This document shows, in pieces, positions 12,000 to 60,664 of a stretch of DNA of 64,000 nt. Numbering within the stretch: position 1 is the stretch's first letter; the number at the start of each line of letters is the position of its first letter. The DNA comes from an uncultured Eubacteriales bacterium. GTDB taxonomy: Bacteria > Bacillota > Clostridia > Christensenellales > UBA1242. The notes below the pieces were generated by a model, which did no database searches, was not told the origin of the DNA, and saw nothing but the letters and a program-made list of their open reading frames with translations. The position numbers and the translations under genes were made by a program. The DNA lies in NCBI GenBank assembly GCA_949077035.1, contig CARUPR010000002.1, positions 91,447 to 155,446 on the forward strand, given 5' to 3'.

Positions 12000-12028
12000 T
12001 TTACATATTGAATAATTTATGATATAAT
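12000..12028 (+). promoter_or_regulatory. Promoter of acpP (extended -10)
   Basis: TTTACA 12000-12005, 17-nt spacer ending in TGa, TATAAT 12023-12028. Confidence 0.55.
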
Positions 12029-12044
12029 TGTTTATGGAGGTAAT

Positions 12045-12281
12045 ATGAAAACTATCGACACAGTAAAAAAAATAATCGCTGAACAACTTTGTATATCAAC
12101 AGATGATATAAAAGATGATGCAAATATTCTTGAAGATTTGGGCGCTGATTCTCTCGATGTTGTTGAGCTTTTAATGACTTTTGAAGATGAATTTAATGTT
12201 TCAATTCCTGATGATAGACTTGAAGAATTGAAGACCATTCCTCAAATTGTCAAAATAATAGATGAAAATGTTAAAAAGTAA
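12045..12281 (+). CDS. acpP: Acyl carrier protein
   Basis: LGADSLDVVELLMTFEDEF with the phosphopantetheine-attachment serine motif (DSLD); 78 aa; GGAGG SD. Confidence 0.9.
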   Translation: MKTIDTVKKIIAEQLCISTDDIKDDANILEDLGADSLDVVELLMTFEDEFNVSIPDDRLEELKTIPQIVKIIDENVKK

Positions 12282-12305
12282 GCTAATAAAGGCTTACTTT
12301 TTTTA
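12273..12305 (+). terminator. Intrinsic terminator of acpP
   Basis: GTAAGC (12278-12283) pairs with GCTTAC (12292-12297), followed by T7. The stop codon lies inside the stem. Confidence 0.7.
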
Positions 12306-12380
12306 AAGATAGAAGAAATGTATGAATAAATTTTTATGGCTGCAATAAAGACAGCAAAGAAATAATTGTTTCTTTATGTT
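12305..12380 (+). repeat. Terminator-adjacent dispersed repeat, degenerate (2 units)
   Basis: AAGATAGAAGAAATGTATGAATAAATTTTT and GCAATAAAGACAGCAAAGAAATAATTGTTTCTTT resemble the CAAGATAGGCA..GTG(C)TTTTTT units at 56053-56205 and 38568-38640. Confidence 0.4.
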
Positions 12381-12458
12381 TCCACTTGAATACAAATTTC
12401 TACAAATTATGACATAATTCTTTTTGCCTACACATAGATTTAAAGGGTGGAGGCAGAT

Positions 12459-12707
12459 ATGAAAGAAGATTTAGTTGAAAGGGTGCTTGAGGCATCAGAA
12501 CATATCATAAAAACTCATGATACAATAAGAAAGACGGCTGAAATTTTGGGTTATAGTAAAAGCACCATTCATAATGATGTTTCAATAAAACTTAAATCCA
12601 TCGATTATGATTTATATTTGACAACAAAAAAAGTCCTTGAAGAAAACTTTGCTCAAAAGCACATTAGGGGTGGGCAGGCAACAAAACTTAAGTATTTGCA
12701 TGAATAG
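12459..12707 (+). CDS. spoIIID: Sporulation transcriptional regulator SpoIIID
   Basis: Strong match to B. subtilis SpoIIID: ..IRKTAEILGYSKSTIHNDV.. (HTH) and ..KHIRGGQATKLKY. GGTGGAGG SD before ATG 12459. Confidence 0.9.
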   Translation: MKEDLVERVLEASEHIIKTHDTIRKTAEILGYSKSTIHNDVSIKLKSIDYDLYLTTKKVLEENFAQKHIRGGQATKLKYLHE

Positions 12708-12789
12708 ACCTTAAGATTATAAAAAACTTAAGTGATAGAAATTTTAATAATTTAGTTTTATAAAGCATAGATATAAAAAGAGGTGTTTA

Positions 12790-13440
12790 ATGAAAAAATT
12801 TCTTTTGGTATTTATGCTTGCAATTTTATCTATATCAATGGTGGGCTGCAATAAAAAAATTAAGATTGAAGATTGTTTGAGCGAACAAACAAAGGTTTAC
12901 TTTAAAGCTCAAACAGATGATGTCAAAGGCACAATCTGCATTGGTCAGAGGGAGGAAAACTTTATTTATGATGGCAATCACACAAAGAATGTTGATTTTA
13001 CTTTGATTACTTTAAAATTTAAAGTTCAACCAACAACCAATCAAATAGATGTGAAATTGAAGGTGAATGAGCAAGAAAAGAATGTGTTGTTGGAATTAAA
13101 TCCAATGGACCATTCCTATATGGCAGATTTAGGTTATGCTTTGAATGAAAATGACAAAATTGCACTAAGCTATCAAGATTTAAACTTAAATTTTGAAAAT
13201 TTAAGCAAAAACTTTAAAATTCAATACAATGATGCAATAAAAATAGCCATAGATGAATTTGGTGATGATTTAGACAGTTTTTATGGCAAAGGAAACTTTG
13301 AAGGTGAATGTTATTTGCAGGTTTATGATTTTAATAAAGACGGAAACCTTTATTGGCTTTTTACAATAATTGGCAAAAATAAAAAGGTTAAGAATGTTGT
13401 AATTGATGTAAAAGATGGCTCGATTTATTTAAAATTTTAA
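12790..13440 (+). CDS. Hypothetical lipoprotein
   Basis: Signal peptide with lipobox SMVGC; AAGAGGTG SD. No recognisable family. Confidence 0.6.
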   Translation: MKKFLLVFMLAILSISMVGCNKKIKIEDCLSEQTKVYFKAQTDDVKGTICIGQREENFIYDGNHTKNVDFTLITLKFKVQPTTNQIDVKLKVNEQEKNVLLELNPMDHSYMADLGYALNENDKIALSYQDLNLNFENLSKNFKIQYNDAIKIAIDEFGDDLDSFYGKGNFEGECYLQVYDFNKDGNLYWLFTIIGKNKKVKNVVIDVKDGSIYLKF

Positions 13441-13554
13441 CAATAGATAGAAAACAAAAAATAAACTAAATTAGACTAAAAACACAGAAAATTTGCAAAA
13501 AAATAAGATTTTTAATTAAATTCTTATAATTTTGGATATTTTTTGTGTTTTTTT

Positions 13555-13654
13555 TAACATAAGATAGGCAAACGCAATGTGAGTGCTTTATTATGTGCGC
13601 AAGAAATAAAATGTTCTTTTTGTGAAACATTGCGAGAACTTTCTTTTTTAATTT
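13555..13654 (+). repeat. Dispersed repeat family, 1 good unit plus 2 degenerate units
   Basis: AACATAAGATAGGCAAACGCAATGTGAGTGCTTTATT (13561-13590 core) closely matches the units at 41416-41460 and 60071-60118. It is followed by ..GCGCAAGAAATAAAATGTTCTTTTT and ..GCGAGAACTTTCTTTTTT. Confidence 0.65.
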
Positions 13655-13665
13655 TGCTTAAAAGG

Positions 13666-13693
13666 TTGACATTTTATCGGGGGGGGGTATAAT
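13666..13693 (+). promoter_or_regulatory. Consensus promoter with a G9 homopolymer in the spacer
   Basis: TTGACA 13666-13671, 16-nt spacer whose last 9 nt are G (13679-13687), TATAAT 13688-13693. Confidence 0.55.
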
Positions 13694-13728
13694 ATAGGAA
13701 ATGAAAGTAAAGGAGCAAAAGAGAAGAA

Positions 13729-14256
13729 ATGAAAAAAGCACTTAATGTAATGTTGGTTTTATGTTTAATTTGTTGCGGTTTTATGCTTTCTGCGTGCGGT
13801 GGCAGTCAACCTGGAAAACTTAATTTTAATTATGAATCAAATAGGACAAAGATGGATTCTAATGCTGAACTTGATTTGTATTGTGATGCTGAAATATTTT
13901 TAAATGTAAAAAACGATACAAAAGATACTGTTACAATAGTTAAAGACAAATTTACATTGAGTTTTATTGCACCTCATTGGGTAAGTTATGGCCTATATAA
14001 TGTAAATTTTATGGATGTTGTCTATGTCGACCAATCAATTATAATGAAAGATAGCATGGGAACTGAAATTTCATCGTATATAGATTTAGAATCAGGGAAA
14101 CAAATATCTGTTCTTTTAAAATTTACAGATGATAAATTAATTTATGATTCTTTTTATACTGTGAATAGTCCACACATTGAAGAAATGTATAGGACAAAAT
14201 TTGAATTGCGATATGGAGAAAAAGTGATTTGGGAAGGCCTATTGAATAAAATATAA
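13729..14256 (+). CDS. Hypothetical lipoprotein (candidate phase-variable)
   Basis: Signal peptide with the canonical lipobox LSAC followed by GGS. No recognisable family. Confidence 0.6.
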   Translation: MKKALNVMLVLCLICCGFMLSACGGSQPGKLNFNYESNRTKMDSNAELDLYCDAEIFLNVKNDTKDTVTIVKDKFTLSFIAPHWVSYGLYNVNFMDVVYVDQSIIMKDSMGTEISSYIDLESGKQISVLLKFTDDKLIYDSFYTVNSPHIEEMYRTKFELRYGEKVIWEGLLNKI

Positions 14257-14276
14257 AAAAAATACAAAAATAAAAA

Positions 14277-14320
14277 GCATTTGAAGTTTTGAGGTGTACC
14301 TCAGTTTTGAATGTTTTTTT
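14277..14320 (+). terminator. Intrinsic terminator (imperfect stem)
   Basis: TGAGG/CCTCA core stem plus an outer CATT/AATG pairing, followed by T7 (14314-14320). Confidence 0.5.
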
Positions 14321-14341
14321 GTTGTTTATTGTGATTAATAT

Positions 14342-14370
14342 TTGCGCTATACGAAATTATATGTTATAAT
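14342..14370 (+). promoter_or_regulatory. hflX promoter (extended -10)
   Basis: TTGCGC 14342-14347, 17-nt spacer ending in TGt, TATAAT 14365-14370. ATG 14377 is 6 nt downstream with no SD. Confidence 0.5.
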
Positions 14371-14376
14371 AACATC

Positions 14377-15480
14377 ATGAAAAGTAATATTATAGAAAAA
14401 GAAAACGCAATAGTTGTTGTGGTTGCAGTCAAGAAAGAAGATAATATTGAAAGAAAAACAAAGGAGATAAATCGCCTTTGTTATTCTGCCGACCTTAATG
14501 TGATTGATAATTTTTATCAAAAGGTGAAAGATTTTAATAAGAGGACTGTTATTGGGACGGGAAAAGTTGAGGAAATAAAAGAGTATATTGCTTCTTGTGA
14601 GGAAATAGTCGATGTTGTGATTGTTGACTATCCGCTCACAGGTTCTCAAATGAAAAATCTTGCCGATGAATTTAAAACAAAGGTCATTGATAGGGTTGGG
14701 CTTATCATTGATATTTTTGCACGAGGTGCTAGGTCAAGAGAGGCAAAATTGCAGGTTAAACTTGCACAAGACCTCTATCTTTTGCCAAGGCTTTCTCAAA
14801 TGCAGGGGACAAGTGGCAGGTTTGGAAGCGCTGGTGTGGGCATGAGAGGTCCGGGTGAAACCAAGCTTGAGCTTAATAGGCGAATATTAGAACGTGAAAT
14901 GGATAATTTAAAAGCACAAATTGAAAAAATAAAAACACAAAGGCAGTCAACGCGAAGAGAAAGACTGAAATCAAATCTTCCTAAAATAGCCTTGGTAGGT
15001 TATACAAACTCTGGTAAATCATCACTTCTCAACACTTTGGTAAAAGAGAATATATATGCTGATGACAAGTTTTTTGCCACCTTAGATACAACCACAAGAA
15101 AGCTCTATTTAGGGGATGGCAAATATGCCGTGCTTACAGACACTGTTGGTTTTATTTCTGACCTTCCTCATCAACTTGTTGACGCATTTTCTTCAACTCT
15201 TGAAGAGGCAGCTGATGCCGATTTATTATTGCATGTTGTGGATGTTTCCCTTGACAAAAATATTGACGGAAAGAAGGAATTTGAAATCAATATGGCGGTT
15301 ACAAACAAGCTTCTTGATGAGCTTGGTGCAACACAAAATAGAATAGTAATTTTAAACAAATGTGACTTGTTGGCAAAGCCAACGGAAATAAAGGAAAACC
15401 AAATTTTATTATCAGCAAAAAAAGGGCAGGGATTAAATCGTCTGCTTGATATGGTGAAAAATAGACTTAATTTAGATTAA
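14377..15480 (+). CDS. hflX: GTPase HflX
   Basis: HflX N-domain (DRVGLIIDIFARGARSREAKLQV, GPGETKLE) and G-domain motifs GYTNSGKSS, DTVGF, NKCD. Confidence 0.9.
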   Translation: MKSNIIEKENAIVVVVAVKKEDNIERKTKEINRLCYSADLNVIDNFYQKVKDFNKRTVIGTGKVEEIKEYIASCEEIVDVVIVDYPLTGSQMKNLADEFKTKVIDRVGLIIDIFARGARSREAKLQVKLAQDLYLLPRLSQMQGTSGRFGSAGVGMRGPGETKLELNRRILEREMDNLKAQIEKIKTQRQSTRRERLKSNLPKIALVGYTNSGKSSLLNTLVKENIYADDKFFATLDTTTRKLYLGDGKYAVLTDTVGFISDLPHQLVDAFSSTLEEAADADLLLHVVDVSLDKNIDGKKEFEINMAVTNKLLDELGATQNRIVILNKCDLLAKPTEIKENQILLSAKKGQGLNRLLDMVKNRLNLD

Positions 15481-15490
15481 TTAAATTAAA

Positions 15491-15721
15491 TCATTTCTTA
15501 TTTAAATTATTGTAAGTTTCATTTAATTTTTCAATTAAGAAATCAACATCAACTTGGTGCACATATGCGGCTTCTTCAATTGTTTCTTCCATTCCTAAAT
15601 GGCAAAAAATACAATGCATACCAAAGCCCATAAAGATATCACCCAAACTTTCATCAAGTTTGATGACATCATCAATTATCATATCTTTGGTGATTGGTTG
15701 TTTTAATTTATTCTTTTTCAT
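15491..15721 (-). CDS. DUF1858 / hybrid-cluster-protein-associated redox disulfide domain protein
   Basis: FGMHCIFCHLGMEETIEEAAYVH motif typical of DUF1858. Start moved to ATG 15721 because the listed TTG 15739 lies upstream of the -10 box inside the promoter. Confidence 0.65.
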   Translation of the reverse strand: MKKNKLKQPITKDMIIDDVIKLDESLGDIFMGFGMHCIFCHLGMEETIEEAAYVHQVDVDFLIEKLNETYNNLNKK

Positions 15722-15727
15722 AGTTTG

Positions 15728-15756
15728 ATTATAGGACAAAATTTAAAAATTGTCAA
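15728..15756 (-). promoter_or_regulatory. Perfect consensus promoter (TTGACA-17-TATAAT) on the minus strand
   Basis: On the minus strand: TTGACA 15756-15751, 17-nt spacer, TATAAT 15733-15728, then 6 nt and ATG 15721. No SD. Confidence 0.6.
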
Positions 15757-15817
15757 AAAAAATAAATAAATTTTTAAAATAAGTTCTAAATCAAAAATTA
15801 TAAAATAAATTATTACT

Positions 15818-16519
15818 ATGGAAAAGATAAGCAATATAATTTCAAAAAAAGTAATATCACTTGATAATGCAAATCAGGTGGGATATGTTGTCAATGTAAT
15901 TTTTGACGAACGTGTAAAATTTTTCACAGGTCTAATCATTATTGATGATGAAAGTGAAAATTCTTTTGTGCTGCAAAGGGAAGATATTTATTCAATGGGT
16001 GATGAAACCATAATGATTAAATCGGCAGATTGTCTGCAATATAATATTTCAAGCACATCAAACAATCCAGTTGGTAAAACTGTTTATGATAGTCATGGAA
16101 ATTGTTTGGGCAGGGTTTGTGATGTTGAATTAAGTGGAAAGGTGGTGAAAAAGATTATCACAAACTTTTGTGAATTTCCTCAGCGTTTTGTCAGAAAATC
16201 TGGTGATAATTTTCTGATTTATGGAATTTATAAAAAGGAAAAAGAAAAATCATTTAAAGAAAAAGTTGAAATTGCAGGTGCGGCAAATTTGCCAAAAGCC
16301 ACTATTGCTCAAACTTTAAATGGTGAATTTGTCAGACCAGAAAGCCCAACCAGAATTTTTGTCAACTCAAATCTTTTGCTTGGAAAGGTGATAACAAGTG
16401 ATATTTTTGGGTTTAATAATGAGTTGGTTGCCAAGAAAAATGATGTTATAAGTAAAAAAATTATAAGCAAAGCTAAAGCACATAATAAGCTAAATTTGCT
16501 CAGTTATTATAGTAAATAG
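15818..16519 (+). CDS. PRC-barrel domain protein (two PRC-like segments)
   Basis: ISKKVISLDNANQVGYVVNVIFDE and PVGKTVYDSHGNCLGRVCDVEL resemble YlmC/YmxH-type PRC barrels. Confidence 0.45.
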   Translation: MEKISNIISKKVISLDNANQVGYVVNVIFDERVKFFTGLIIIDDESENSFVLQREDIYSMGDETIMIKSADCLQYNISSTSNNPVGKTVYDSHGNCLGRVCDVELSGKVVKKIITNFCEFPQRFVRKSGDNFLIYGIYKKEKEKSFKEKVEIAGAANLPKATIAQTLNGEFVRPESPTRIFVNSNLLLGKVITSDIFGFNNELVAKKNDVISKKIISKAKAHNKLNLLSYYSK

Positions 16520-16530
16520 ACAAAAATATT

Positions 16531-16570
16531 AAAAAAAACAGCGATTTTATTGAATTTTCGTTGTTTTTTT
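16531..16570 (+). terminator. Intrinsic terminator
   Basis: AACAGCGA (16537-16544) pairs with TCGTTGTT (16558-16565) with one G-U pair. Flanked by an A-run and T7. Confidence 0.6.
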
Positions 16571-16809
16571 ATTTAATTTTGCTTTTATTTAATTTAAAAA
16601 ATTCAAATTTTAATTGTCAAACTTTTTTGTCTGTTTATTAATTATTATATTTATATATAAATAATTATATTTTTTATTAAAATATTTGTTTAATCGTTTG
16701 TATTTTTGATGTGATTTGTAGTAAAATAAATGTGAAAGAAATTTTGAAAACTTTATTACTATTTTACTGAGTTAATTTTCTTTGCATTGTTTGGTTAAGT
16801 GAGGTGGAA

Positions 16810-19491
16810 ATGGTTAGAATTATTCCAAGAAGAACAAAAGTTAAACTTGAATTTGTTAGAGGATTTACAGGTATTGACTTATTGATAGCTGTTGTTGCTG
16901 TTGCCATTTTAGTTGTGCTTGCTGCTTCAAACTTTCCTGGACATATTTGGATTGCAATGGTTTGGGCTATTTTTGCGCTTTCATTGTTTTTTAAAATTGC
17001 TGATAGTGATAGATTTTATGTGACAATGGTGCATCTTGCCAGATATTCTCTTCAAAAGAAAAAATATGAAAAGGCCCCTAAAAATGGAAAAGCCAATATG
17101 AAAGATATCATTCCTTTTGAGTCAATTCATGAAGATAGATTTATTTCTTATGGAAGTTATTATGCAGGTGTTTTAGAGGTCAGCCCAATCCTATTTGGGC
17201 TTTTGAATGAATATAGCCAAAACAATGTAATTGATGTTGGTTTTGGAAATGCTCTGAGAAGAATTGAAGAGTCGCAGGTTTGTGAACTTATCAAAATCAA
17301 TAAAGCAATGGTGCTTGACAACTATGCATATCTTGAAAATAAAAAATACGACAGGCTTTTGGACCAACTTTATGAAAAACAGATGTCACAAAAAGAAATT
17401 GATGCCAGAGCCCCAATCTTTGAAGAAAGGGTAAATTTTATTGAAAACAAAAACAGAGATGAAAAAATTTATAAGGACTTTTTCTATCTTGTTGTTATGG
17501 GCAAAGATTTAGAGGCAATTGACAATACTTTAAGTGGTATGGCAAGCAATTTTATTTCCTGCCTCACTCCAGTTGTGACAAAAAGATTGACAGGTGCAGA
17601 CCTTGCAATCTTCTTAAAGGCAAATTACAATAGAGAGTTTAATGAAAGAGAACTTGAAAATATCCCATATTCTGATTATGTAAAATGGGCGACACCAGAC
17701 ACAATCAAATTTTCATCAGCAAAATACAAAGTTGATGGTGTGGGATACAGGACTTTTGCTTTAAATGAATATCCTTTGCAGGTAGGCAATGCTTGGGGTG
17801 CATCATTCTTCCTTCTTGATAAAACCAAAGTGGTAATGAAATTTCAAAAGGCTCCAAAATTTCAATCTGAGAAAAAGATTGATAAGGCCATCATGGATAT
17901 GGAAACAAAACTTTATAGAACTGGAAAAAGCAGTACCAGAATTGAAATTGAAACACATCTTGATACTTTAAGAAATCTTCTTCAAGAACTTAAAACTTCA
18001 AACCAACAATTATTTGACGTAAACACATTTGTCACTTGTGAAGATTCTGCAAGAAAGGAAATTAAATCAATGCTTAAGCAGGAAGGTTTCCGCTATACAG
18101 AATTGTTTGCAAGACAAATTGACGCCTTTATCAGCACTGGTATTTCAATGAGAGATAATATTAAAGAGCTTCAAAGAGGTATTCCAACTTATACTCTTGC
18201 AGGTGCATTCCCATTTATTTCATCAGAACTTCAAGATGAGGGTGGTGTTTATATTGGTGACAATATTTATCCGGTATTTGTAGACTTCTTTGCAAGAAAT
18301 GCTCAACGTGTCAATTCAAACATGATGATTATTGGAAAGTCTGGTTCTGGTAAATCGTTTGCGACAAAGACACTTCTTGCAAACTTTGCAGCCGATAATA
18401 CAAAGATTTTCATTGTTGACCCTGAAAAGGAATATGCAGAACTATCAGAAAGTCTTCATGGAAAGATGATTGATGTAGGTTCTTCATTGCAGGGTATCAT
18501 CAATCCTTTCAATATCATTCGTGCTCTTGATAAAGATGATGATGAAGAAATGCCAATTGAGCTTAATCAGGCCGAGGCAATAAAAGTCAAGAAAGATGAT
18601 TCATTTAATCAGCACCTTCAATTCCTTGAACAATTTTTCAGAACAATCTTGCAAGGTATTTCATCAGATGCTTTTGAAATGATTAATACATTGATTCTTG
18701 AAATGTATGAAAACTTTAATATCAATGAATATACCGACCTTAAGAAATTGAAACCAACAGATTATCCAACCTTTGATGACCTTTATAAACTTCTTACAAA
18801 AAAACTTGAGGAAGCAAAAGAAGAGTTTGTGCTAAACAATTTGAGAGTTGCTCAGGCATATATTAGAAAATTTGCCAAAGGCGGAAGAAATGCCAACCTT
18901 TGGAATGGTCCAACTTCTATTGAAACCAATGAAAACTTTGTATGTTTCAACTTCCAATCATTGATTGCTGGAAATAATGAAATGCTTACAAATGCGCAGA
19001 TGCTTTTGGTATTTAAGTATATTGAAAGTGAAGTTATAAACAATAAAGATTATAATGAAATTCATGCAACCAATCGTAAAATTATCGTAGTTGTCGATGA
19101 AGCCCACTTATTTATCAACCCTCGATATCCAATCGCTTTAAACTTTATGACAAGCATGGCAAAACGTATCCGTAAGTATGGCGGTATGCAGATTGTTATT
19201 ACACAGAATATTAATGACTTTGTTGGTTCTGAAGAAATTAAACGTCAGTCAACAGCGGTTATTAATGCCTGTCAATATTCATTGATTTTTTCGCTTTCAC
19301 CAAATGACGTAAACGACCTTATCGAGCTTTATAAAAACTCTGGTGGTATAAACAAAGCGGAAAGAAATAGTATTGTAAGTGCAGGGGTTGGTCAGGCATT
19401 TGTTATCACTTCTCCAACAGCAAGAACAATGGTGCAAATTAGACCTCTTCCTTATGTTTATTCAATTATTGAAAAGAGAAAAAAGAAATAA
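16810..19491 (+). CDS. Membrane-anchored VirB4/TraE-type (AAA_10/DUF87-like) secretion ATPase
   Basis: Two N-terminal TM helices; Walker A IGKSGSGKS (about 18332-18358); Walker B VVVDEAH (about 19084-19107); then ITQN and a VirB4-like C-terminal region. GAGGTGG SD before ATG 16810. Confidence 0.75.
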   Translation: MVRIIPRRTKVKLEFVRGFTGIDLLIAVVAVAILVVLAASNFPGHIWIAMVWAIFALSLFFKIADSDRFYVTMVHLARYSLQKKKYEKAPKNGKANMKDIIPFESIHEDRFISYGSYYAGVLEVSPILFGLLNEYSQNNVIDVGFGNALRRIEESQVCELIKINKAMVLDNYAYLENKKYDRLLDQLYEKQMSQKEIDARAPIFEERVNFIENKNRDEKIYKDFFYLVVMGKDLEAIDNTLSGMASNFISCLTPVVTKRLTGADLAIFLKANYNREFNERELENIPYSDYVKWATPDTIKFSSAKYKVDGVGYRTFALNEYPLQVGNAWGASFFLLDKTKVVMKFQKAPKFQSEKKIDKAIMDMETKLYRTGKSSTRIEIETHLDTLRNLLQELKTSNQQLFDVNTFVTCEDSARKEIKSMLKQEGFRYTELFARQIDAFISTGISMRDNIKELQRGIPTYTLAGAFPFISSELQDEGGVYIGDNIYPVFVDFFARNAQRVNSNMMIIGKSGSGKSFATKTLLANFAADNTKIFIVDPEKEYAELSESLHGKMIDVGSSLQGIINPFNIIRALDKDDDEEMPIELNQAEAIKVKKDDSFNQHLQFLEQFFRTILQGISSDAFEMINTLILEMYENFNINEYTDLKKLKPTDYPTFDDLYKLLTKKLEEAKEEFVLNNLRVAQAYIRKFAKGGRNANLWNGPTSIETNENFVCFNFQSLIAGNNEMLTNAQMLLVFKYIESEVINNKDYNEIHATNRKIIVVVDEAHLFINPRYPIALNFMTSMAKRIRKYGGMQIVITQNINDFVGSEEIKRQSTAVINACQYSLIFSLSPNDVNDLIELYKNSGGINKAERNSIVSAGVGQAFVITSPTARTMVQIRPLPYVYSIIEKRKKK

Positions 19492-19516
19492 AATAAGGTT
19501 GAAAAAATTAATTAAA

Positions 19517-19577
19517 AATTGTTTACATTCAGTCAAAATTATAAGTTTTTATTAAATTTTGACTGAAATTGTAAATT
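19517..19577 (+). other. Long AT-rich inverted repeat between the ATPase and giant-protein genes
   Basis: TTCAGTCAAAATT (19528-19540) is perfectly complementary to AATTTTGACTGAA (19555-19567). The outer TTTACA/TGTAAA pairing has a 2-nt bulge. 14-nt loop and no T-run. Confidence 0.45.
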
Positions 19578-19586
19578 ATCTGAAAT

Positions 19587-19601
19587 TTGATAATTTATCA
19601 A
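19587..19601. promoter_or_regulatory. Perfect 7-1-7 palindrome, operator-like
   Basis: TTGATAA-T-TTATCAA lies 66 nt upstream of the giant ORF start. Confidence 0.3.
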
Positions 19602-19666
19602 GTTTTACAAAAAAAATAAGAAAAAACATTGATTTTTTGATAAAAAAACAAAAAAAGGATATGTAA

Positions 19667-22600
19667 ATGGTAAAATCAAGAAAACTTAGTATTTTAATAT
19701 TTAGTTTATTACTTGTTTTGGCAAGTCTTATTTTTGCGTCTTGTGGAAAATTGGATTATTCAAAAACATATCTCTCTTCTTCAAATGGTGATTATATAGA
19801 ACTTTTTGTTGAAGAAGAAAAAGAATTGTCCATAACAATAAATAATCCTGTTGATAAAATGAACAGGGGAATCACATTCTCTCAATCAAACCCTTTGGTT
19901 GCAAATGTGACGCAGATTGCAAATCAAAACAATACCACTACATATTCAATTGTTGGACTTTCAGGCGGAAAAACTATTGTTGATTTTGTTTCAATAGAGG
20001 GCAGAAAGTCACTATCAATCACAATAAATGTCAAAGAATTTTCAAATACTTTAGAGAAAGGCGAAAACAGTCTTTATCTTTCAAAAACTAAACAATTAAA
20101 ACCTACTTCCAATGATTTCAAATTTAAAGATAGTGCAACTGAAAGAAATCTTGAATTTTACTTTTATGGAAAAACCTCAAATAGCGGGTTGTTGACAGAA
20201 GAAGATATCTTATCAAGTGATGGCTATTTAAATAATTTTGTAAACATACAAATCTATTCAATTGAAAATAATGATTATCTCATCTTTACAGATAAAGATG
20301 GGTTTTTGCATACTTTGGGCGAAGAGATTTTGGTTCTTGGTTCAAACAATGTCAGATATGAATTTATAGATGTGAGTATGGATGAAGAAGGTTTCTCTTT
20401 TGATACCACAAGGGCATCTGCGATTAATTATGGAAATAAATTTGCATTTTTGGCAAAATATGAAAACGCTAAGCTTGAAGAGGGCGAAGGAAATGGAAGG
20501 ATATTTTGCGAAAGTGAATTTCATGTATTAAAGGATATTGTTGCAGAAGATTTTAAACATGAATATGGTTATAAAATTGATGATGTGCCTTTCAAAGCAG
20601 GTGATGAAACCTCATTATATAAATTGGACAATCTTAAAGATGGCAAAATTACATTAATACCTCAATATAAAACTACAATCTTAGACAATCCAATTCTTAT
20701 TGGAAAAAGTGCAAACTATTTGACAGCTTATCTGCAATTAGAATTGCCAACTAATGAACTTTTAGAATTTGATTTTAATACAAAAGATAAAGATTTTGTA
20801 AATACAAACCTTATAGAAATTTTAAAAAATGGCGATAAGACAATTTATTATTTTGAAATTAATTGCAGCATAGGAAATCCAAGAAAGACTAAAATAGATT
20901 TCAATTTTTGGTATGATGGTTTTAAAAATAGTGATGATTCAAAAGTGAATTTCACTTATAGTATTGATGTTGATATCCGCATCATTCCAATGACACTGCT
21001 TATAAACAACATAGATTTTGCTCAATTAAATAAGGTTTATAAATTTTATGATTATTATGCTTCAGAAAATTCAGGTTGGCAGGCTTTTAATTTCTCGGTT
21101 GTTCCTGAAGGTGCTGAGTATAATGTTTTAAAACTTGACCTTACAAATTCAAATCTTCAAATTAAATATAAAAATATAGTTTATAGTGATACAATTGTTG
21201 AAATTAATGATTTGAAAGAACCTGTCTATGTAAAAGGGGTTGATAATGCCCAATTGACAGAGGCGGTGCAAAATCTTCCTGTGCAAATGGAATTTAATAT
21301 CATTCAACAGGATAGACTTGAAACAAATATTCAATATGAAATTTTAAAGGGTGTGAGAGCTTTAAATTTTGAAACAGAAAATTTTAAAGAACTTATTTCT
21401 CTTGAGCGATACTCTGGTGAAAAACTTTTTGATGACATTTATGCTGATGCTGAATTCAATGGCATGACATTCACACTTGAATCGGGTAAGGATGTTGTAA
21501 AATTTGCTTATGATGAAGCAAACTTGTTTAATAAAGTTGGTGATAAGTATTATTTAAATATCAATTTAATGCCTCGTGACGTTGGTTCTGGCACATACTT
21601 GATTACTCTTGACAATGGCACAAGCACTCTTTTGACAATTGATGTCAGAGAAGGGCTTAATAGTTTAAGTTTGACAACAAAGAATGAAGACAATTCTATT
21701 AAATTCAAAGAAGATAGCGAGAATTATTCATTAATATATCTTTTAAATAGAAATGCTCAATCTTATTTTGATGCAAAACTTATTGCAAATGATGAAATCA
21801 ATTCAACTGCTATTGTTGATATTGACATTATAAATGATTCTTCTTCAATTTTTACTAGACTTCAAGAAGATGGAAGATATTTAATCTATTCATCATTAAG
21901 TGGTCAAAACAACATTGTTTTCAAGGTGAAAGGTTATAAAATTGAAAACTTTGTTAAAAGAGAAATATTCTTTGAATATATAGTCAATCTTGTGACTTAT
22001 GAGCTTGCCGAGAATTTGTTTGTCTATAAATTATCTGATGCTTATAATGATTCATATCCAATGCAGACCAATGCAAAATATGTAAATGTTTATGCGGGAA
22101 CAAATAATCTTGATATAAGACAGGCAAAATTTGAGGTGAGATTAAAAAATCAAAACGCTTTGCTTTTCCAAAGTCAAAATCATGATGAATCAAGACGTGG
22201 ATTTGTTGCAGAGAAATTTAAACAAGAATTTTTATATTTTGAAAGCGACACTCCAATTACTAAAGATGGTGTGCCTGTAGATAGAATTTTTTATTCACAA
22301 TATCAAAGCAATATTTATACAATAGGAAGGCTTGGCACTTTTGATGCTGAAAGGTTGATTTTTACATCATTAGGCAGCGGCGAGGTAAAACTTATTGCTC
22401 ATGTTATGCAATTTAACAAGCTTTATTCTGAAACAATAAATATAAACATTTTGCCTTATGAAGAGGTGCAAAAGGTTTCACTTCAAGATACTGTAGATGA
22501 ACTTGAATTTTCTGCATTTAAAAAAGAACGCAGCGTAATTGCCTTTCCTACAAATTCAACTGCAACAAACAGTGAGCTTGTCGCACTTGTTGAAGGCGGG

Positions 22601-25600
22601 CAGATTATCAGAAATGAACAAGTTTTTAAAGTGCTTGATAAAAATTCTATTAATTATATAGAAAGTGATGGCAAAACACATATTACTTTTAAAGTAAATG
22701 AAGATTTCTTAAAAGCAGTTGTCCTTGCAGATGATAAAACCTATGAAGAAGAGGTTATTGCCGGAAATATTCGTATTGTTGCAAAAGACTGGCTTGACTC
22801 TAATGGTGATTTAAGACCTGGATATATTGAATATGCTTCTATAAGATTTGAGTTTGCAAAAGGGACTGAAAAGAGCAGATATACCATTGAAAATGCTGAT
22901 GATTTAAATATGGTTAGAAACAATCTTTCATCTCATTTTAAGATAAACACAACCATTGATGCTTCAAATCTTTCATTGCCTTTGGGAGAACTTTCTGGCT
23001 CTATTATAGGCACAAGTTCTTATGCTGAAATCACTGGTTTAAATATATCTCAAGCTTGGAACAATGAGGCTGAGGGATTGGCTTATTATGGTTTATTTAC
23101 ATCTATAGCCAAAGGTGGATATTTAGAATATATCCAATTTAGCGGTAAGTTTTCTGTAAAAACTGACAGCAATTCTTTTATCGGTTTAGTAGCCGGCAAA
23201 AATAATGGTCGATTAACTAATATTGGTGCTTCTATTTCAACTTCAAATATTTCAATTGCAGAAAATTTCAATGCCTATTTTGGCGGACTTGTTGGTGAAA
23301 ACAATGGGCAAATCATACAAGACTTTACCAAGTTTGAAAGCGGAAAAGCTTATGCAGGATTTACACCAAACATTGTTATGATGAATGATTTTGTAAACAT
23401 TAAATATGCTTTAAGCAACAACTTTGAAAGAAGTTTTGGCGGAATAGCTGGTGTAAATACCGGTGAAATAAGAAAGATAGATAGTGAAAATGTTTCATTT
23501 AGTGGTTATTCAAACTATATGGCTTTTGCTCGCATAAAAGCTTCTTATGAAGGCACTATTGCAGTAGGTCATAACTATTTGGTAAATATTGGCGGTCTGG
23601 TTGGAAGAAATCAGCAGGGGCAGTATAGCCAATTAGATAAAAACACACAACAAGACGTCAAATATGACGCAAGAATTGTTGGTGGATACATCAACAGTGA
23701 AGATGATTTCATTCCTTACTTAAACAATGATAATTTTAAGGACGGAAAAGGTATAATTGTTGGTGGTGAAGTTTGGGGAGATGGTTTTGTAGGCGGAGTT
23801 GTTGGAAACAACGATGAAAGCTCTTTAAACAATTTCTGCGGAATTACCACAAGGACTTTTGTCCGCTGTTATAAGCAGTTTGGAGAAAATTCTCAGTTGA
23901 CACTTCTTGCCTTTATGAGTGCAAATAAAGGTGACTCAGGTTCTGCAATGAGTGATACCGAAAACACAGCATACGCTATTCAAGCTGTTGATGATGGCAA
24001 GGTTTTAGAGGAAAGTGCTATGGGCATTTTATATAGCAGTGAAAAACCTCAAAACAGCCAGCTTTCATTAAGCAATATTGGTTTTGGAACTAAAAACGGC
24101 AATGAAATTTCTGTTTTAAGTGACATAAATGATGAAAACAATGAAGCAAATGTATTATCTTATTTGCAAAGAAATCTGTTGACAAATTCAAATCCAGATT
24201 CTGATTTTATTGTTTCAAGTTCAAATAGGGCAAATTATTATGGTGATTTCTTGGTGGTAGGTGAAAACAACAATCATCAAAAAATCATTCTTTACAGCAA
24301 AACCTTTGCAGAAGGAAATTTGGATGACTTATCAATCACTCAGAAATTTAACAATGCTTTATTAAGTAAAAACAATAATACTCAGATTTTCTATACATAC
24401 TATTTTAATGTTGCTTCAGCTGCAGGTGAAGATATAGCAAACTTGCAATCACAACTTGATTTAGAATTAAATAAACACACCTCTCAAAGCAATTTCTATC
24501 CATTTATTGCAAAGGGTGAAATGAACTTTGTTTCAAAGTCACCTGACATTTTGACAATTGACCAAATGGGTAAAATTACTATTAAAAATACAGGCCGTGC
24601 TTTGATAACAGCTTCAAGTATATTAAATTCAAATGAAGCTTTGAATTTCTATATCTATGTTGTAAATTATTTTAATTCTCAATCTGAAATGAATGATGAA
24701 GAAAAAGTTTCTGTTGTATATCCAACAATTTCTTCTTTAGATGCTGTAAATCAAACAACAATAGAACTTCGCGGAAATAATTCTGCAACGCTTTATATCA
24801 TACCAAATTATCAAGCTGATATAAAAATTGACCAAAAGACAAGTTTTGTATCTGACCAAAGAGGTTTTGCAAGTTTCAGAAACGTCCGTTTCTATCTTGC
24901 TCAAAATTCTGACTTGACTGCAAGAGTGAGGGTATTTAAAGATAATGGTCTTACCCCAGCAAATGAAGTCACTAATGATGATTTCTATGATGAAGAAAAC
25001 AATCCACTTGATATAAGTGTTGTAGGTCAAATTATCACTATAAGAAGAAAAGATAGGACTGAAGAAAATCAATATCGACTTTATATAGAGCCTATTTTGA
25101 CTCAAACAATTGATGGTGAAATTTATACAATTTCGACAAATAAAACCATTGATGAAGCTTTTGTAGACTATAAATATGGTGCTTTAAGCTTAAGTAATAA
25201 AAATTATAATGAAGTTCCTATCAGGACAAGTAAGATGGTTGCTGATGAAATTACTTTGATTTCAACAGATGAAAACGAAACTGCAGAAGACTTATTATAT
25301 TATATTATAGGTCTTAAAAATCAGCACCTGCAGGGGAATGTAAATCCTGAAAAAATTGATTATCAGCTTAGTGGTGATGAAAGATTATTCTTTGTTGTAT
25401 TTAATAAAATTTCAAAGGAACCTCTTGGAAATGGAACATTTAAGCATAAGTTTAGTTTGGAAATTACTATAAATACAAATTGCCAACTTTACAAAAATAG
25501 ATATAATGAAGATATCTATGGCACATACCTGCTTCATATTCAGTCTTCAAGTAATTCGGCAGTTTCAAGAGATATTGAAATTAATTTTGAAAAGACTGGC

Positions 25601-28600
25601 GTGCAGTCAGTTGTAATTGACAACTATACATCTCTTAAAGATAACCAATCAGGGTTGTCAACATCATCTGATTTGGCTTATCCAGGAGAAGCTGGCTTGC
25701 TTATCTTGACAATAAGACCATCTGATAGCGATTTTGACTATTTGATTATTGAAAATGATGAATCAAATTTGACAAATAATCGTGCGATTGCTACTTTCAG
25801 TTTAGTTGCAAGAGTTGAAGGAATAGATGGAAATCTCTTTGATGAGAGCATTATTATCGGCTCAACTGTAGGCAATGGTTATAAAATTACCTTGCAAGAA
25901 ATTTTAGATGCCTATTCAAGGACAGGAAATAATTTAAAATATAAAAATTATGATGGTGTCATCTATATTAAATATAATTTAAGTTCAAGCGGTGTTGATG
26001 ATTTAAGCAAGACAATCATAAATGTTTCAACTTGGAAAGATGGTGCAGTTTCTTATAAGTCAAGTAAGGAATTGACTGTAAAATTGCAAAATTATGCTGC
26101 CGTTGAAATTGATGGAAAAGAGCCAATTTCGATAAATCAGAATGGTATATATCATACTTATGAAGTTGCTCGCGGATTAAAATACAAACTTAATATCAAT
26201 TCTTATGGCTTTAGACAGGATAGTATTTCTATTACATCAAACAATTCAATAGGAAAGATTACTTATGAAAATGGAAATTATTATTTGACCATTTCTGAGG
26301 GCACAATTGATTATACCGATGGCAACAATCAGATTATCCTTACAACAAGGGCAAGTCAAGGTGATGGCGATGGTGTCAGAACTGCTGAAAGTCAAACTAA
26401 GGTTATCGTTTTTGAATATGTCTTTAATTACAACAATGAGTCAGATAAAAACTCTGACATTGTAAAAGGCATGGGTGACGGAATAATCAATGTTCAAGTC
26501 GGCTCAAAAATTACTCTTGGACTTGATATCTATGATTATATTGAATACAATTCATCGATAAGTGGAGTAAGAAATAAAATTGAAGAATTTATTTCAACTC
26601 TTGAAAGAAAAGGTGAGTGGAAGACAATAACAAATCTTATTTCTGATGACCAACCTGATTATAAAATGGCTGACTCTTCAAACGAAGATAGAAAAAGATA
26701 TATTTTGGGTGTGGACTCAAATAATGAAGTTTTGAAACATAGCAATTATTATTTTAATTCTGATGGATTAAGCTTGATTCCAAAGAGGACTCATTATCCT
26801 GTTGAAAAATTCTATTTCTTTGAATATAAGGTAAGATATGATTCTTCAAATGGTGTTTATGTAGTCAAAGATGGCAATGATAGTGATAGTGCAAGAGATT
26901 TGCAAACAACTTTCATCTTCAGTGTTTATTCTTCAAGCAGTGAAGAAAGCCCAGTTCCTATCTATACCTATTCAGACCTTACAAATATGCAAGCTGGTGG
27001 TTATTATATATTGCTTAATGATATCACTCTTCCATCTGTTGCTGATGAAGAGGGTGGCGTAAAAGCATTTACACCTTTAAAAGGTGACTTTGCTTCATTT
27101 GACGGAAATGGTCACGCGATAAATTTTGCTGGAATTTATGATATGGGAAATGCAACTGAAATAGGACTTTTCCAATCATTAAACAATGGCTCTATAATCA
27201 AAAATCTTATTGTCAATTATACAACACTTAATGATGGGTCTGACCTTAACACAGACGCAAATGATTCTGTTTATGCTTGGTATGGTTTGAAGACTGTTAA
27301 GTTTATTACCACAGCAGACAACTTTGTTTTTGGCAGTATCGTTGCACAGAATATGGGAACGATTACAAACTGCAGAGTTTATTCAGATGTTTTATCAGAT
27401 GAAAAATACTATTTGGCAATTAAAGCAGATAATGCAATAAATAATAATAGTTATGTAGGCGGACTTGCCGGCTATAACAATGGATTTATCACCAATTGCG
27501 GTGTAAGCATAAATGCAAAAGTTCCATTCAATTTGGCAGGTGTTGTTGCACAAAACAATGGTAAGATTGCAGGATGTTATTTTGAAAATGGAAATTTGAT
27601 AAACAATTCTCAATATGACCAGCATATTGCAGGGCTTGCGATTTTAAATTCTGCCGATGCAAAGATAATTACAAGTTATGTATCTGGCAAACAGACAAAC
27701 ACAAATCTATTCAGCAAGGACAATCAAAGTCAAATTTCTTCAACTCTTGCTGGTGCAGGATTTATTTATAACAATGCAGGTCTTATCAAAGATTGTTATT
27801 CTGATATCGACCTTTCAAAGACTTCCTCTGATATGGCAGGTTTTGCTTATAGAAATGGTGGCTCGATAAGAAATTCATTCTCACTTTCAATTTTAAGAAG
27901 CAATACAACAGCTTCTGCAGGCTTTGTAAAAGAAAATTCTTTTGAAGGAAATGAAGGTCAGTTTGAAAATTGCTATTATCTATACAATTTAATGGCTCCT
28001 GCAAGCTCAAATAGCTCAAATAGTGCTGAAATAGAGGCAGAAAGAGAAAGATTGAGAAAGGAAGGGCATTATGTTGATGGAGAAAACAATATAAACATCA
28101 ATGTGTCTTTATACGATGTTTCCTTTGATGGTGTTAAGAGATTGACTCAAGGTCAATTTGCCGATGCGGAAACTTACTTTAAGCATTATTCTTATGATGA
28201 GAATATGAGCACAAGGTCAGTTTGGTTCTTCTCACGAGGATATACTTCTAATGAATTTATAGATTATATTCCAACAACAGAAAAGATTATTCTTCCTGGT
28301 GATGAAGGAAACAATCAAAGTAATACCGTTTATAGAGAAGAGCTTATGACATTTGGTCGAAATCGTTTGACATTGGTTGCTCCAAATGTTAGGGTGCTTT
28401 CTGTGCGAAACTTTGACCGCTCGGAAGTAGATGAAGAGACCGAAAATATCACATATTTCTATACCGATGATATGAACGCTCCAGAGAGAGGTTCAATCCA
28501 TAATCCAAGACTTATTTATAATGCTCAGACTATGGAAAATGAAATTTTAAATCAGACATCTTTAAATCATATTAATACAACAAATTATCGTATGATAAGC

Positions 28601-41415: not shown

Positions 41416-41460
41416 ATAAAAAGAAAGCACTCACTTTGTTTGTGCCTATCTTGCGTTCCT
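41416..41460 (-). repeat. Dispersed repeat, best-conserved copy (minus orientation)
   Basis: Minus strand reads AGGAACGCAAGATAGGCACAAACAAAGTGAGTGCTTTCTTTTT. 37 of 40 core positions are identical to the copy at 60071-60118. It abuts the tRNA-Glu terminator. Confidence 0.8.
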
Positions 41461-54531: not shown

Positions 54532-55983
54532 ATGGCAAAAAAGGGAAATGTTAAAAAAGGTTTTGCAAATTATTTGCTTATTCTGTTTATTGCGATAATT
54601 GCTGCATTTTTTATAATTGTTACAATAATGCTTTTTACTCCATTCAAAAGTATTTTAGGATTCAAATATTTTGTATATTATGGGGATGCTAAACAAATTT
54701 CCTCAATAAAAAGCGCAGGGCAAGATATTGGTATAAATTTTTCAAATATAGAAAATGTTGATATAGAGTGTGGTTTTTCTAATGTCATTATCAAAAGAGC
54801 AGGCTCTAAGATTGATAGTGGTAAGATTGTTATTGAAAATAAATGTTCTGGTTTTGCTCGTGAAGACCAAGATACAGATTTTAAATATGATATCAATTTT
54901 ACCGATAACACTTTCAAAAATCTTAAAATAAAAGTTACCGAACCTGAAGGATTTTTGTTTTTTAAGAAGGATATAACTATCTCTCTTTTAACAACAATTT
55001 ATCAAAAAGATTCTTTCAATAATACAAAGATAAATATAAACAGCACAAAGGGAAATGTCTTTGTTGGAAACAATGAAGTTTTAAATCAAAGTCCAGAAGC
55101 TTTCAATGACACTTCTATAAAATCTTTGGATGTAAAAAATACCGATGGTGATATATTTATATTTGAAAAAACATCAAAAATCTCTGATTTAATGATTAAA
55201 ACAAATAAAGGTTATATTGATGCAAGGGCAAACTTTGAAATAAACAATTTAAAGTTGAATGCTTTAAAATCAAAAATAAATTTCAATGGTTTGACTTTAG
55301 ATGATGCAAAATTCAATATAAACAATTCTGATTTGAATATCAATAATTTAAATGCAAAAAATCAGGCAGAACTTGATGTAAAATCAGGTTATATCACAGT
55401 CAATAATTTGGAAGGGACAATAACTTCAAATTCAATGATAAGCGATATGGGAAAGGCAACTATTACTATAAATAATGTAAAAAACGGCAATGTTGTTTTC
55501 CCAAATGCTAATGATTCTGTTATAAAATTGGGAAGTGTTGATGAAAATTCTCAAGTATATTTGAGAGGAAAGGATTGTGACGCAAAAATCAATAAATTAG
55601 CTGGGGTAGCTTTTATTGAAACAACTGGTGGAAATGTTGCAATAACTACTAAAGGAAAAGAAAAGGAAACTGATATAGAAGCTTCACCACGCCTAGAAGT
55701 TAAGACTGGGTCTGGAAATATAAATTTAAAATATAAAGAAAAAAATATCAAAAATAATTATGTAAATTTAAAGACCAATTCAGGCAGTATAAATGTTGAT
55801 TTAAGTCAAGAACTTGCGTTTGTCCTTAATGTTTTTAATACAAAAAATGAGGTAAGAGATAATAAAAACATTTCTATTGAAGGTTATGGCAATGAATTTG
55901 TTATTCCATTGGTAAGAAATGGCGGAACAAATAATCTTAATATCACTTCTGATGGAAAGATTGCAGTAAATTTTATTAAATAA
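54532..55983 (+). CDS. N-terminally anchored DUF4097-like beta-strand repeat protein
   Basis: TM helix followed by repeated short strands (KTGSGNINLKY, LKTNSGSINVDL, TNKGYIDARANF) typical of DUF4097 putative adhesins. GGGAGG SD. Confidence 0.45.
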   Translation: MAKKGNVKKGFANYLLILFIAIIAAFFIIVTIMLFTPFKSILGFKYFVYYGDAKQISSIKSAGQDIGINFSNIENVDIECGFSNVIIKRAGSKIDSGKIVIENKCSGFAREDQDTDFKYDINFTDNTFKNLKIKVTEPEGFLFFKKDITISLLTTIYQKDSFNNTKININSTKGNVFVGNNEVLNQSPEAFNDTSIKSLDVKNTDGDIFIFEKTSKISDLMIKTNKGYIDARANFEINNLKLNALKSKINFNGLTLDDAKFNINNSDLNINNLNAKNQAELDVKSGYITVNNLEGTITSNSMISDMGKATITINNVKNGNVVFPNANDSVIKLGSVDENSQVYLRGKDCDAKINKLAGVAFIETTGGNVAITTKGKEKETDIEASPRLEVKTGSGNINLKYKEKNIKNNYVNLKTNSGSINVDLSQELAFVLNVFNTKNEVRDNKNISIEGYGNEFVIPLVRNGGTNNLNITSDGKIAVNFIK

Positions 55984-56052: not shown

Positions 56053-56205
56053 AACTCAAGATAGGTGTAAACAACAAGTATGTTTTTTAGTGACGCAAGA
56101 TAGGAATGATTGAAATGAGTGCTTTTTTAGTGATGCAAGACATAGGCAAAGAGGGTGCTTTTTTTAGAAATAAGAAAGATTGAGCATGAGAGTTTTCATT
56201 TGCGA
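56053..56205 (+). repeat. Array of 4 tandem units of the dispersed repeat family
   Basis: CTCAAGATAGGTGTAAACAACAAGTATGTTTTTTAGTG / ACGCAAGATAGGAATGATTGAAATGAGTGCTTTTTTAGTG / ATGCAAGACATAGGCAAAGAGGGTGCTTTTTTTAGAA / ATAAGAAAGATTGAGCATGAGAGTTTTCATTTGCG. Confidence 0.75.
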
Positions 56206-60070: not shown

Positions 60071-60118
60071 CAAAAAAGAAGAAAGCACTCACAATGTTCG
60101 TGCCTATCTTGCGTTCCT
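60071..60118 (-). repeat. Dispersed repeat, well-conserved copy (minus orientation)
   Basis: Minus strand reads AGGAACGCAAGATAGGCACGAACATTGTGAGTGCTTTCTTCTTTTTT, directly after the NUDIX gene terminator. Confidence 0.8.
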
Positions 60119-60202: not shown

Positions 60203-60664
60203 TTAAATATTCCAAACGCGCTTAGCGGAATTTAATTGTTCGCTAAAAACTTTACCTTTACTCCATTTTATATATTTAGGCAAATCTTCAATATCTATAA
60301 ACAATCTTTCTGATATTTCCCATTCTTTAACAAAGGGGAATTCGTCTTTTACTTTAGCAGTATATCTAAGTTGATAATACACATCATTATTTTCTACAAC
60401 TTCAACTGCTCCTAGATATTTTGCTTCTTTAATTGTTATACAAGCTTCTTCCATTATTTCTCGATTTAGGGTTTCCAAAAATGTTTCGTTTGTTTCTGGA
60501 TGCCCGCCAGGTATTGTCCAAGTATCCTTATTTCTTACTATCAACAACTGATTTTTGCTGTTAAAAATATAACCACTTACTTGTGTATATTTTTGATTTT
60601 TTATTTTAAAACTTTCGCACCATAAAATCTTGCAATTATCTGATAAAATTTCATAATTTTTCAT
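60203..60664 (-). CDS. NUDIX hydrolase
   Basis: Nudix box GGHPETNETFLETLNREIMEEACI (Gx5Ex7REuxEExGu). Confidence 0.85.
   Translation of the reverse strand: MKNYEILSDNCKILWCESFKIKNQKYTQVSGYIFNSKNQLLIVRNKDTWTIPGGHPETNETFLETLNREIMEEACITIKEAKYLGAVEVVENNDVYYQLRYTAKVKDEFPFVKEWEISERLFIDIEDLPKYIKWSKGKVFSEQLNSAKRVWNI

Follow-up and report, generated by a model that had tools for sequence, protein, structure and literature searches.

The locus considered here raises the question of whether a run of G residues, placed between the two hexamers of a promoter, could serve to vary the expression of the lipoprotein gene that lies downstream of it. An earlier note on this DNA had suggested as much, describing TTGACA and TATAAT hexamers separated by a 16-nt spacer that ends in nine Gs, and on rereading the sequence of the window (the whole stretch of DNA that was analysed, 64 kb in length) we found each of these elements at the same positions. 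On the + strand the -35 hexamer TTGACA (13666-13671) is followed by the 16-nt spacer TTTTATCGGGGGGGGG (13672-13687; TTTTATC and then G9) and by the -10 hexamer TATAAT (13688-13693), all three read directly from the sequence, and a weaker -10 candidate, TAATAT (13690-13695, +), overlaps the last of these. The G9 homopolymer itself, the putative slippage tract, occupies positions 13679-13687 (+) and is G10 in another assembly of the species, GCA_949902715.1. The window has a GC content of 31.5%, and a census of its homopolymers recovered two G runs of 5 nt, one of 9 nt and no C run longer than 4; hence the tract is, as had been claimed, the only long G/C homopolymer present, being the sole G/C run above 5 nt in 64 kb. 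The number of G runs of at least 9 nt expected under a first-order Markov model is 0.024. Across 46 loci of the related clade, amounting to 440 kb, the longest G/C run is of 6 nt (10 cases), and none of at least 7 nt was found. The tract is a strong compositional outlier for both the genome and the clade. The search for further G/C tracts that had been proposed in the same context yielded none in the 64-kb window, which therefore gives no hint of a genome-wide set of contingency loci. Perfect TTGACA-N15-19-TATAAT sites number 5 in the window as against 0.25 expected from shuffled sequences, indicating that the organism clearly uses this type of promoter, and within the 12-15 kb region the G-tract promoter alone matches at 12 of the 12 hexamer positions.

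The window is chromosomal, containing pth, mfd, rpoB/rpoC, hflX, pyruvate:ferredoxin oxidoreductase and tRNA genes. The relatives of its HflX place it among uncultured gut Clostridia, with the nearest species showing 90-93% HflX identity and the metagenome-assembled genomes (MAGs) concerned coming from mouse, rabbit, deer and human guts. Common to the related species is the gene order M23 peptidase, ACP, SpoIIID, lipo1, hflX, DUF1858 and PRC-barrel, in which lipo1 is a lipoprotein gene (12790-13440) whose product has a signal peptide and the lipobox M-V-G-C20. The gene under the G-tract promoter, lipo2 (13729-14256, +), encodes an orphan lipoprotein of 175 aa. Upstream of it an intrinsic terminator of lipo1 (13478..13555, +), with 35-nt AT-rich hairpin arms ending in T8, folds with -23.8 kcal/mol (z = -6.6; none of 200 shuffled sequences was as stable), and an equivalent hairpin with a T-run is also seen 3' of lipo1 in the related species L010 (discussed below). 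Downstream, lipo2 has an intrinsic terminator of its own (14272..14321, +; -16.8 kcal/mol, z = -4.6), beyond which the hflX promoter (14342..14379, +), comprised of TTGCGC, 17 nt, TGnTATAAT, 6 nt and the ATG at 14377 in a leaderless layout, sets the downstream limit of the lipo2 cassette. A search of Rfam returned nothing in 13300-14400. lipo2 is a monocistronic insert and, given the terminators on both sides, its transcription should depend on the G-tract promoter, which appears to be the only plausible driver and the sole evident promoter of the gene.

Two other sequence elements were seen in the vicinity of the promoter. The first is a 29-nt intergenic motif, AAGATAGGCA-N8-GTGAGTGCTTT, one copy of which (13561-13589, +) lies 77 nt upstream of the -35 hexamer, with the others at 41424-41452 (-), 56097-56125 (+) and 60082-60110 (-). 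These 4 copies in the window, against 0 expected from shuffles, are each situated directly 3' of a hairpin and T-run terminator, namely those of lipo1, tRNA-Glu and the genes at 54532-55983 and 60203-60664. The motif has no Rfam match and is absent from the related-species loci examined, and its copy at 13561-13589 may not belong to the promoter switch. The second is an 8-bp inverted repeat (CGCAATGT at 13573-13580 and ACATTGCG at 13627-13634), which we set aside as being within chance, the fold of the region having a z of -0.47. A further inverted repeat brackets the promoter itself (13650-13670 and 13805-13825; 71% complementary, with the 8-bp perfect core AGGTTGAC/GTCAACCT) and might be taken to indicate an inverton, i.e. 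an invertible promoter instead of a slippage switch. However, this repeat is short (21 nt) and imperfect, its right arm falls within the coding sequence of lipo2, there is no recombinase gene next to it, and the promoter has the same orientation in all four assemblies of the species. We rejected the inverton on account of the weak inverted repeat and the single orientation, and regard it as scarcely credible.

To what extent the length of the tract might matter can be gauged from the promoters of the clade itself. In the window and the 46 related loci we counted the TTGACA-Nk-TATAAT sites with at most 1 mismatch, and obtained 63 sites for k=17, 24 for k=16 and 22 for k=18, over a background of ~15 sites per length (k = 11-15 and 19-23). 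Near-consensus promoters in this clade strongly prefer a 17-nt spacer, a result in keeping with the prior assertion that a G10 tract would give the optimal spacing. Judged by this census, G9 (16 nt) would be a tolerated but less-used geometry and G10 (17 nt) the one preferred in the clade, whereas the spacing in a G8 or a G12 variant would drop to the census background. The overlapping TAATAT (13690-13695) would stand at 17-nt spacing in a G8 variant, and would thereby be expected to leave G7-G8 variants partly active. This second, weaker -10 candidate speaks for a dial that can take several positions and not for a clean on/off switch. It must be set against such tuning that, with perfect hexamers, the 16- and 17-nt spacers may differ in strength by just a few-fold.

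We then compared four assemblies of the species, namely the window, SRR36216081, GCA_948653375.1 and GCA_949902715.1, of which the last three were recovered by exact-protein look-ups. The tract is G9 in the first three and G10 in the last, and the 300 nt of intergenic DNA are otherwise identical in all four. Over 5955 nt the contig of GCA_949902715.1 shows 0 mismatches to the window and a single indel, that in the tract, which is also the only indel in ~25 kb of same-species comparisons. The chance that a single random difference in 5955 nt would fall in the 10-nt tract is ~0.002, implying that the tract either mutates unusually often in vivo or is prone to sequencing errors. Since the two observed lengths are adjacent, and activity is predicted for the spacers of both (of 16 and 17 nt), they too fit a dial better than an on/off switch; none of the lengths predicted to be OFF (G7 or less, G12 or more) occurs among the four assemblies. 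Inspection of tract length had been recommended in the earlier note, and on these assemblies it did bring out a difference (G9 in three, G10 in one), in consensus sequences only, in which a miscall is possible; it constitutes a weak sign of length variation within a clone.

Three of the four assemblies are essentially one clone, as 4.9 kb of GCA_948653375.1 match the window with 100% identity and the G10 MAG differs from the window in the tract alone. The remaining one, SRR36216081 (L077), represents a divergent strain with 27 SNPs relative to the window in 8.5 kb, all of which lie at or beyond 15042; as it has no SNPs in 12012-15041, its G9 cannot be counted as separate evidence of conservation. 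At the density of the flank (15042-18606) about 15 SNPs would be expected in 12012-15041 as against the 0 seen, which suggests a recent recombination or sweep of the segment. This SNP-free stretch of 3 kb holds SpoIIID, lipo1, the lipo2 cassette and the 5' part of hflX. An exact pattern scan of the GTDB representative genomes with the flanks of the tract returned nothing, and two matches from a scan of JGI metagenomes were rejected as unrelated promoters with ordinary AT-rich spacers and no G-tract. An exact look-up with the HflX protein gave no record, and one of cluster members contributed no new accessions. Look-ups of the ACP, PRC-barrel and M23 proteins led to same-sample contigs and to a 920-nt contig of SRR36216082 that stops short of the tract. 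The contig of GCA_949902715.1 diverges from the window after 16683 (L001 5956-6183), at an AT-rich tandem repeat (16634-16684). The other assemblies have the gene of an 895-aa DUF87/VirB4-like ATPase after the PRC-barrel gene, and a conserved peptide of this ATPase is likewise found downstream of the PRC-barrel gene in several related species; the tail of L001 is thus a rearrangement or a misassembly. The corresponding part of the window (16804-30700) encodes this DUF87/AAA_10/TraG-like ATPase (895 aa) and then a 3677-aa protein with a lipoprotein signal peptide (LIFASCGK); in SRR36216081 the 895-aa ATPase is followed by a 3674-aa gene, and related species seem to have retained the ATPase.

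Taking the promoter, its spacing and its variants together, we consider it on balance probable that the locus is a homopolymer contingency locus of the porA/TP0126 type, which would tune the transcription of an orphan lipoprotein gene. The structural hallmarks of phase variation by a homopolymer in a promoter spacer, as in those two systems, are all found here, and the tract is both over-represented with respect to the composition of the genome and uninterrupted where the gene is intact. Under this proposal a slippage-prone G9/G10 run would lie between the -35 and the -10 of a strong promoter of the SigA type, which alone would drive the monocistronic, species-specific lipo2. The gain or loss of one G in replication would shift the spacer by 1 nt, such that G8 would give 15 nt, G9 a sub-optimal 16 nt, G10 the optimal 17 nt and G11 18 nt, and each shift would alter the contact of RNA polymerase with both hexamers. 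A clonal gut population would consequently come to contain cells with differing amounts of lipo2, as phase variation of a graded or 'volume-control' kind. Of the phase-variation switch originally put forward, the tract in the spacer, the isolated gene and the G9/G10 difference are retained, whereas its on/off form gives way to the graded dial, which fits better. The origin of the G9/G10 polymorphism by slippage in vivo, its effect on transcription, its reversibility and its selection are what we infer from these observations.

The main rival to the contingency-locus reading is a static promoter, with a fixed if unusual spacer, in which the G9/G10 difference would be a sequencing or assembly error or a rare neutral polymorphism and expression would be invariant within populations. 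Such a promoter would accommodate the restriction of G10 to one of the four assemblies, where it is on a 6.2-kb contig from a fragmented MAG, with probably low coverage, for which a homopolymer assembly error is plausible; the agreement of the other three on G9, the location of both lengths within the active 16-17-nt range and the lack of any other contingency-like tract in the window are equally compatible with it. However, it does not sit well with the tract being an outlier in a clade that has no G/C run above 6 in 440 kb, nor with our account of the ~25 kb compared, in which besides the tract no A/T or G/C homopolymer nor any other position differs. Runs of 9-10 Gs are intrinsically slippage-prone in every bacterium in which they have been measured. 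This behaviour, a matter of general knowledge and also illustrated by porA (PMC3639595), speaks against a static tract as well, and we hold the static promoter to be possible but rather unlikely.

The nature of the product has a bearing on what such a contingency locus would vary. The N-terminus of lipo2, MKKALNVMLVLCLICCGFMLSAC, displays a basic n-region, a hydrophobic core and an LSAC lipobox, from which a signal peptide spanning residues 1-22 and a lipidated Cys23 (codon 13795-13797) are predicted, and the protein is accordingly predicted to be surface-exposed. Its only relative among 5.8 billion clustered proteins is lipo2 itself, a HMMER search against 1.84 billion representatives returned lipo2 itself and three giant repetitive proteins, and as a full gene it is absent from all the related-species loci. 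Neither lipo1 nor lipo2 has a significant match in Pfam, and AlphaFold2 run on lipo2 alone gave an unusable model (mean pLDDT 37.9). The initial description of both lipoproteins as lacking a recognisable family hence stands for lipo2, a true orphan, but not for lipo1, which despite having no Pfam match belongs to a family that is conserved beside hflX across the clade. The possibility that lipo2 is a paralogue of lipo1 was rejected on sequence comparison. We found no second copy of the promoter and signal-peptide region of lipo2 in the 64-kb window or in the other loci of the species that were examined, and Tandem Repeats Finder detected no tandem repeats in 13729-14256. A family of the Mycoplasma Vlp type was likewise rejected, as there is no paralogue in the 64 kb of the genome covered and there are no coding repeats.

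A glimpse of a different fate of this cassette is provided by L010 (CAOJSF010000002.1), a related species with 93% HflX identity. What is left of the cassette there, at the same site (L010 4545-4682; also L079 3788-3925), is a promoter and the beginning of a gene that are homologous to those of the window (71% over 132 nt, E 1.6e-9). Here the promoter reads TTGACA-TTTTTCGAGGGGG-TATAAT, with a 13-nt spacer in which the run is interrupted and shorter (GAGGGGG), and the ORF, MKILKKSLVLLFLLCCISCGFIFTARRNI*, meets a stop after 29 codons and encodes the signal peptide only; ~300 nt of non-coding DNA separate this short ORF from hflX. The sequence of the remnant recurs in an independent Logan assembly of the same sample. 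Look-ups with relatives of lipo1 led again to the sample of L010 and to one contig that extends no further than 128 nt beyond lipo1. The cassette is entirely absent from L008 and L009. The coexistence of an intact tract with an intact gene, and of a broken tract, at a spacing that is unusable, with a dead gene, indicates that the integrity of the two goes together. Since the distances separating the window species, L008 and L010 are all roughly equal, gain and loss of the cassette cannot be placed in order. These relatives could also be read as evidence that the locus is either decaying or very young, with lipo2 being a recent or dying orphan and its G-run an accidental, non-adaptive feature that is to be lost as in L010. 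The lack of a homologue of lipo2 anywhere in the protein searches, the promoter and signal-peptide remnant with its 13-nt spacer and early stop, the empty sites of L008 and L009 and the poor spacing of the SD-like element of lipo2 (13 nt) would all agree with such a history. Nevertheless, it is countered by the lipo2 ORF being intact and identical in all four assemblies, by the perfect -35 and -10 hexamers, the terminator and the canonical lipobox of the cassette, and by the persistence of an uninterrupted run of 9-10 Gs in a clade that avoids G-runs. We accordingly view an accidental run in a decaying or newborn gene as improbable.

Beyond the promoter, the leader of lipo2 has features that might add a translational layer to the contingency locus. 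The earlier note had pointed to an out-of-frame mini-ORF that opens with an ATG at 13701 and ends at 13745, and to an AAAGGAG as far as 13 nt from the start of lipo2, both of which we could verify in the sequence. The mini-ORF (13701..13745, +) is of 14 codons, MKVKEQKRRNEKST*, as read directly from the sequence, with its translation being putative; it spans both the SD-like AAAGGAG (13709..13715, +; 13 nt before the ATG at 13729) and the start of lipo2. Its ATG is 7 nt after the TATAAT, i.e. in the position of a leaderless start. Several genes in the window have no SD but a -10 box that precedes the ATG by 6-7 nt. One of these is hflX, which lacks an SD and has the arrangement TGnTATAAT-N6-ATG not only in the window but also in nine related species (L008-L011, L013, L022, L024, L029 and L030), and this conservation indicates that leaderless translation is evidently used in the clade. 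The genes at 40411 and 43693 have a similar leaderless look. The segments 13684-13706 and 13712-13734 form an imperfect direct repeat (74% over 23 nt), by virtue of which the start of the mini-ORF (GGAAATGAAAG) resembles that of lipo2 (AGAAATGAAAA); this may be a small duplication or chance.

One may envisage from this layout a two-layer control, in which transcripts would begin with a leaderless AUG at or next to A13701 and translation of the mini-ORF would either couple to that of lipo2 by termination-reinitiation or block it. The position of the ATG 7 nt after the TATAAT, the leaderless hflX layout without an SD in the window and 9 related species, and the 13 nt between the SD and the ATG of lipo2, as against 4-8 nt for most genes of the window, are consistent with it. 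The 5' UTR of lipo2 is unstructured by RNA folding, which can be read in its favour but also against it, there being no structure to unfold. Moreover, an ATG would occur by chance in the 3-nt window after the -10 in ~6% of cases in such AT-rich DNA, the homologous leader of L010 has no such ATG, which means that the mini-ORF is not conserved, and the mini-ORF peptide has no relatives. We accordingly propose this translational add-on only tentatively, and deem it unlikely.

Precedents for the transcriptional part, i.e. for the homopolymer contingency locus itself, come from several bacterial lineages. Among the closest is porA of Neisseria meningitidis, in which 9-11 Gs lie between the -35 and the -10, with 11G, 10G and 9G resulting in graded expression (PMC3639595); its poly-G promoter has also been described elsewhere (PMC7864442). 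The present locus resembles it in the length range and the placement of its G homopolymer, within a sigma-70-type promoter of a surface protein gene, and in that steps of one G move the spacer around 17 nt. It differs in that N. meningitidis, a Gram-negative pathogen, possesses dozens of contingency loci, whereas here there is a single tract in 64 kb of an uncultured commensal of the Clostridia; further, the protein is a porin there and an orphan lipoprotein here, whose graded expression and switching are putative. In Treponema pallidum the length of poly-G tracts modulates the activity of the TP0126, tprE/G/J and tprL promoters, that of TP0126 setting the distance between -35 and -10 to 17 nt, and in the sister taxon T. 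p. pertenue a deletion has removed the promoter of tprL along with part of the gene (PMC7864442). This deletion resembles the decayed locus of L010, but T. pallidum is a GC-rich spirochaete in which poly-G is common, unlike the present genome of 31.5% GC with its unique tract. The vlp genes of Mycoplasma hyorhinis, studied by Yogev, Citti, Wise and colleagues, reportedly have a poly-A tract in the -35/-10 spacer and encode variable lipoproteins. These genes belong to a multigene family whose members have 5' regions in common and coding regions that are repetitive. While lipo2 has in common with them the homopolymer in the promoter spacer, the surface lipoprotein and the low-GC Bacillota/Mollicutes lineage, the vlp system, with its poly-A tract, multiple genes and coding repeats, stands in contrast to lipo2, which has a poly-G tract, no paralogue that we could find and no coding repeats. 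Another precedent is Bifidobacterium breve, in which intragenic G-tracts occur in sortase-dependent pilus genes and their heterogeneity has been observed by error-corrected sequencing (PMC9187656). Both are Gram-positive gut commensals in which G-tract slippage varies, or in our case would vary, a surface structure; the tract of B. breve, however, is in coding sequence and acts by frameshift as an ON/OFF switch, in contrast to the promoter spacer here.

In gut Bacillota, most of what is known of phase variation concerns invertible promoters, such as those of Clostridioides difficile (reviewed in PMC11868660). Our literature search, which was not exhaustive, turned up SSR switches from Gram-negative bacteria, spirochaetes, mycoplasmas and Bifidobacterium, whereas for Clostridia, where the literature is dominated by invertible promoters, it brought to light no switch based on a homopolymer in a promoter spacer. 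The most far-reaching version of our proposal would have a contingency locus in which the birth and death of an orphan or de novo lipoprotein track the tract and a leaderless mini-ORF gates its translation, and which would be the first of its kind in uncultured commensal Clostridia; this combination we consider doubtful. The mechanism as such is a textbook one, and the advance would be in its taxonomic and ecological reach rather than in the concept. If the contingency-locus reading is true, the count of Gs would offer a simple marker in metagenomic reads for expression states in vivo, and uncultured commensal Clostridia would join the bacteria that diversify their surface via slippage tracts.
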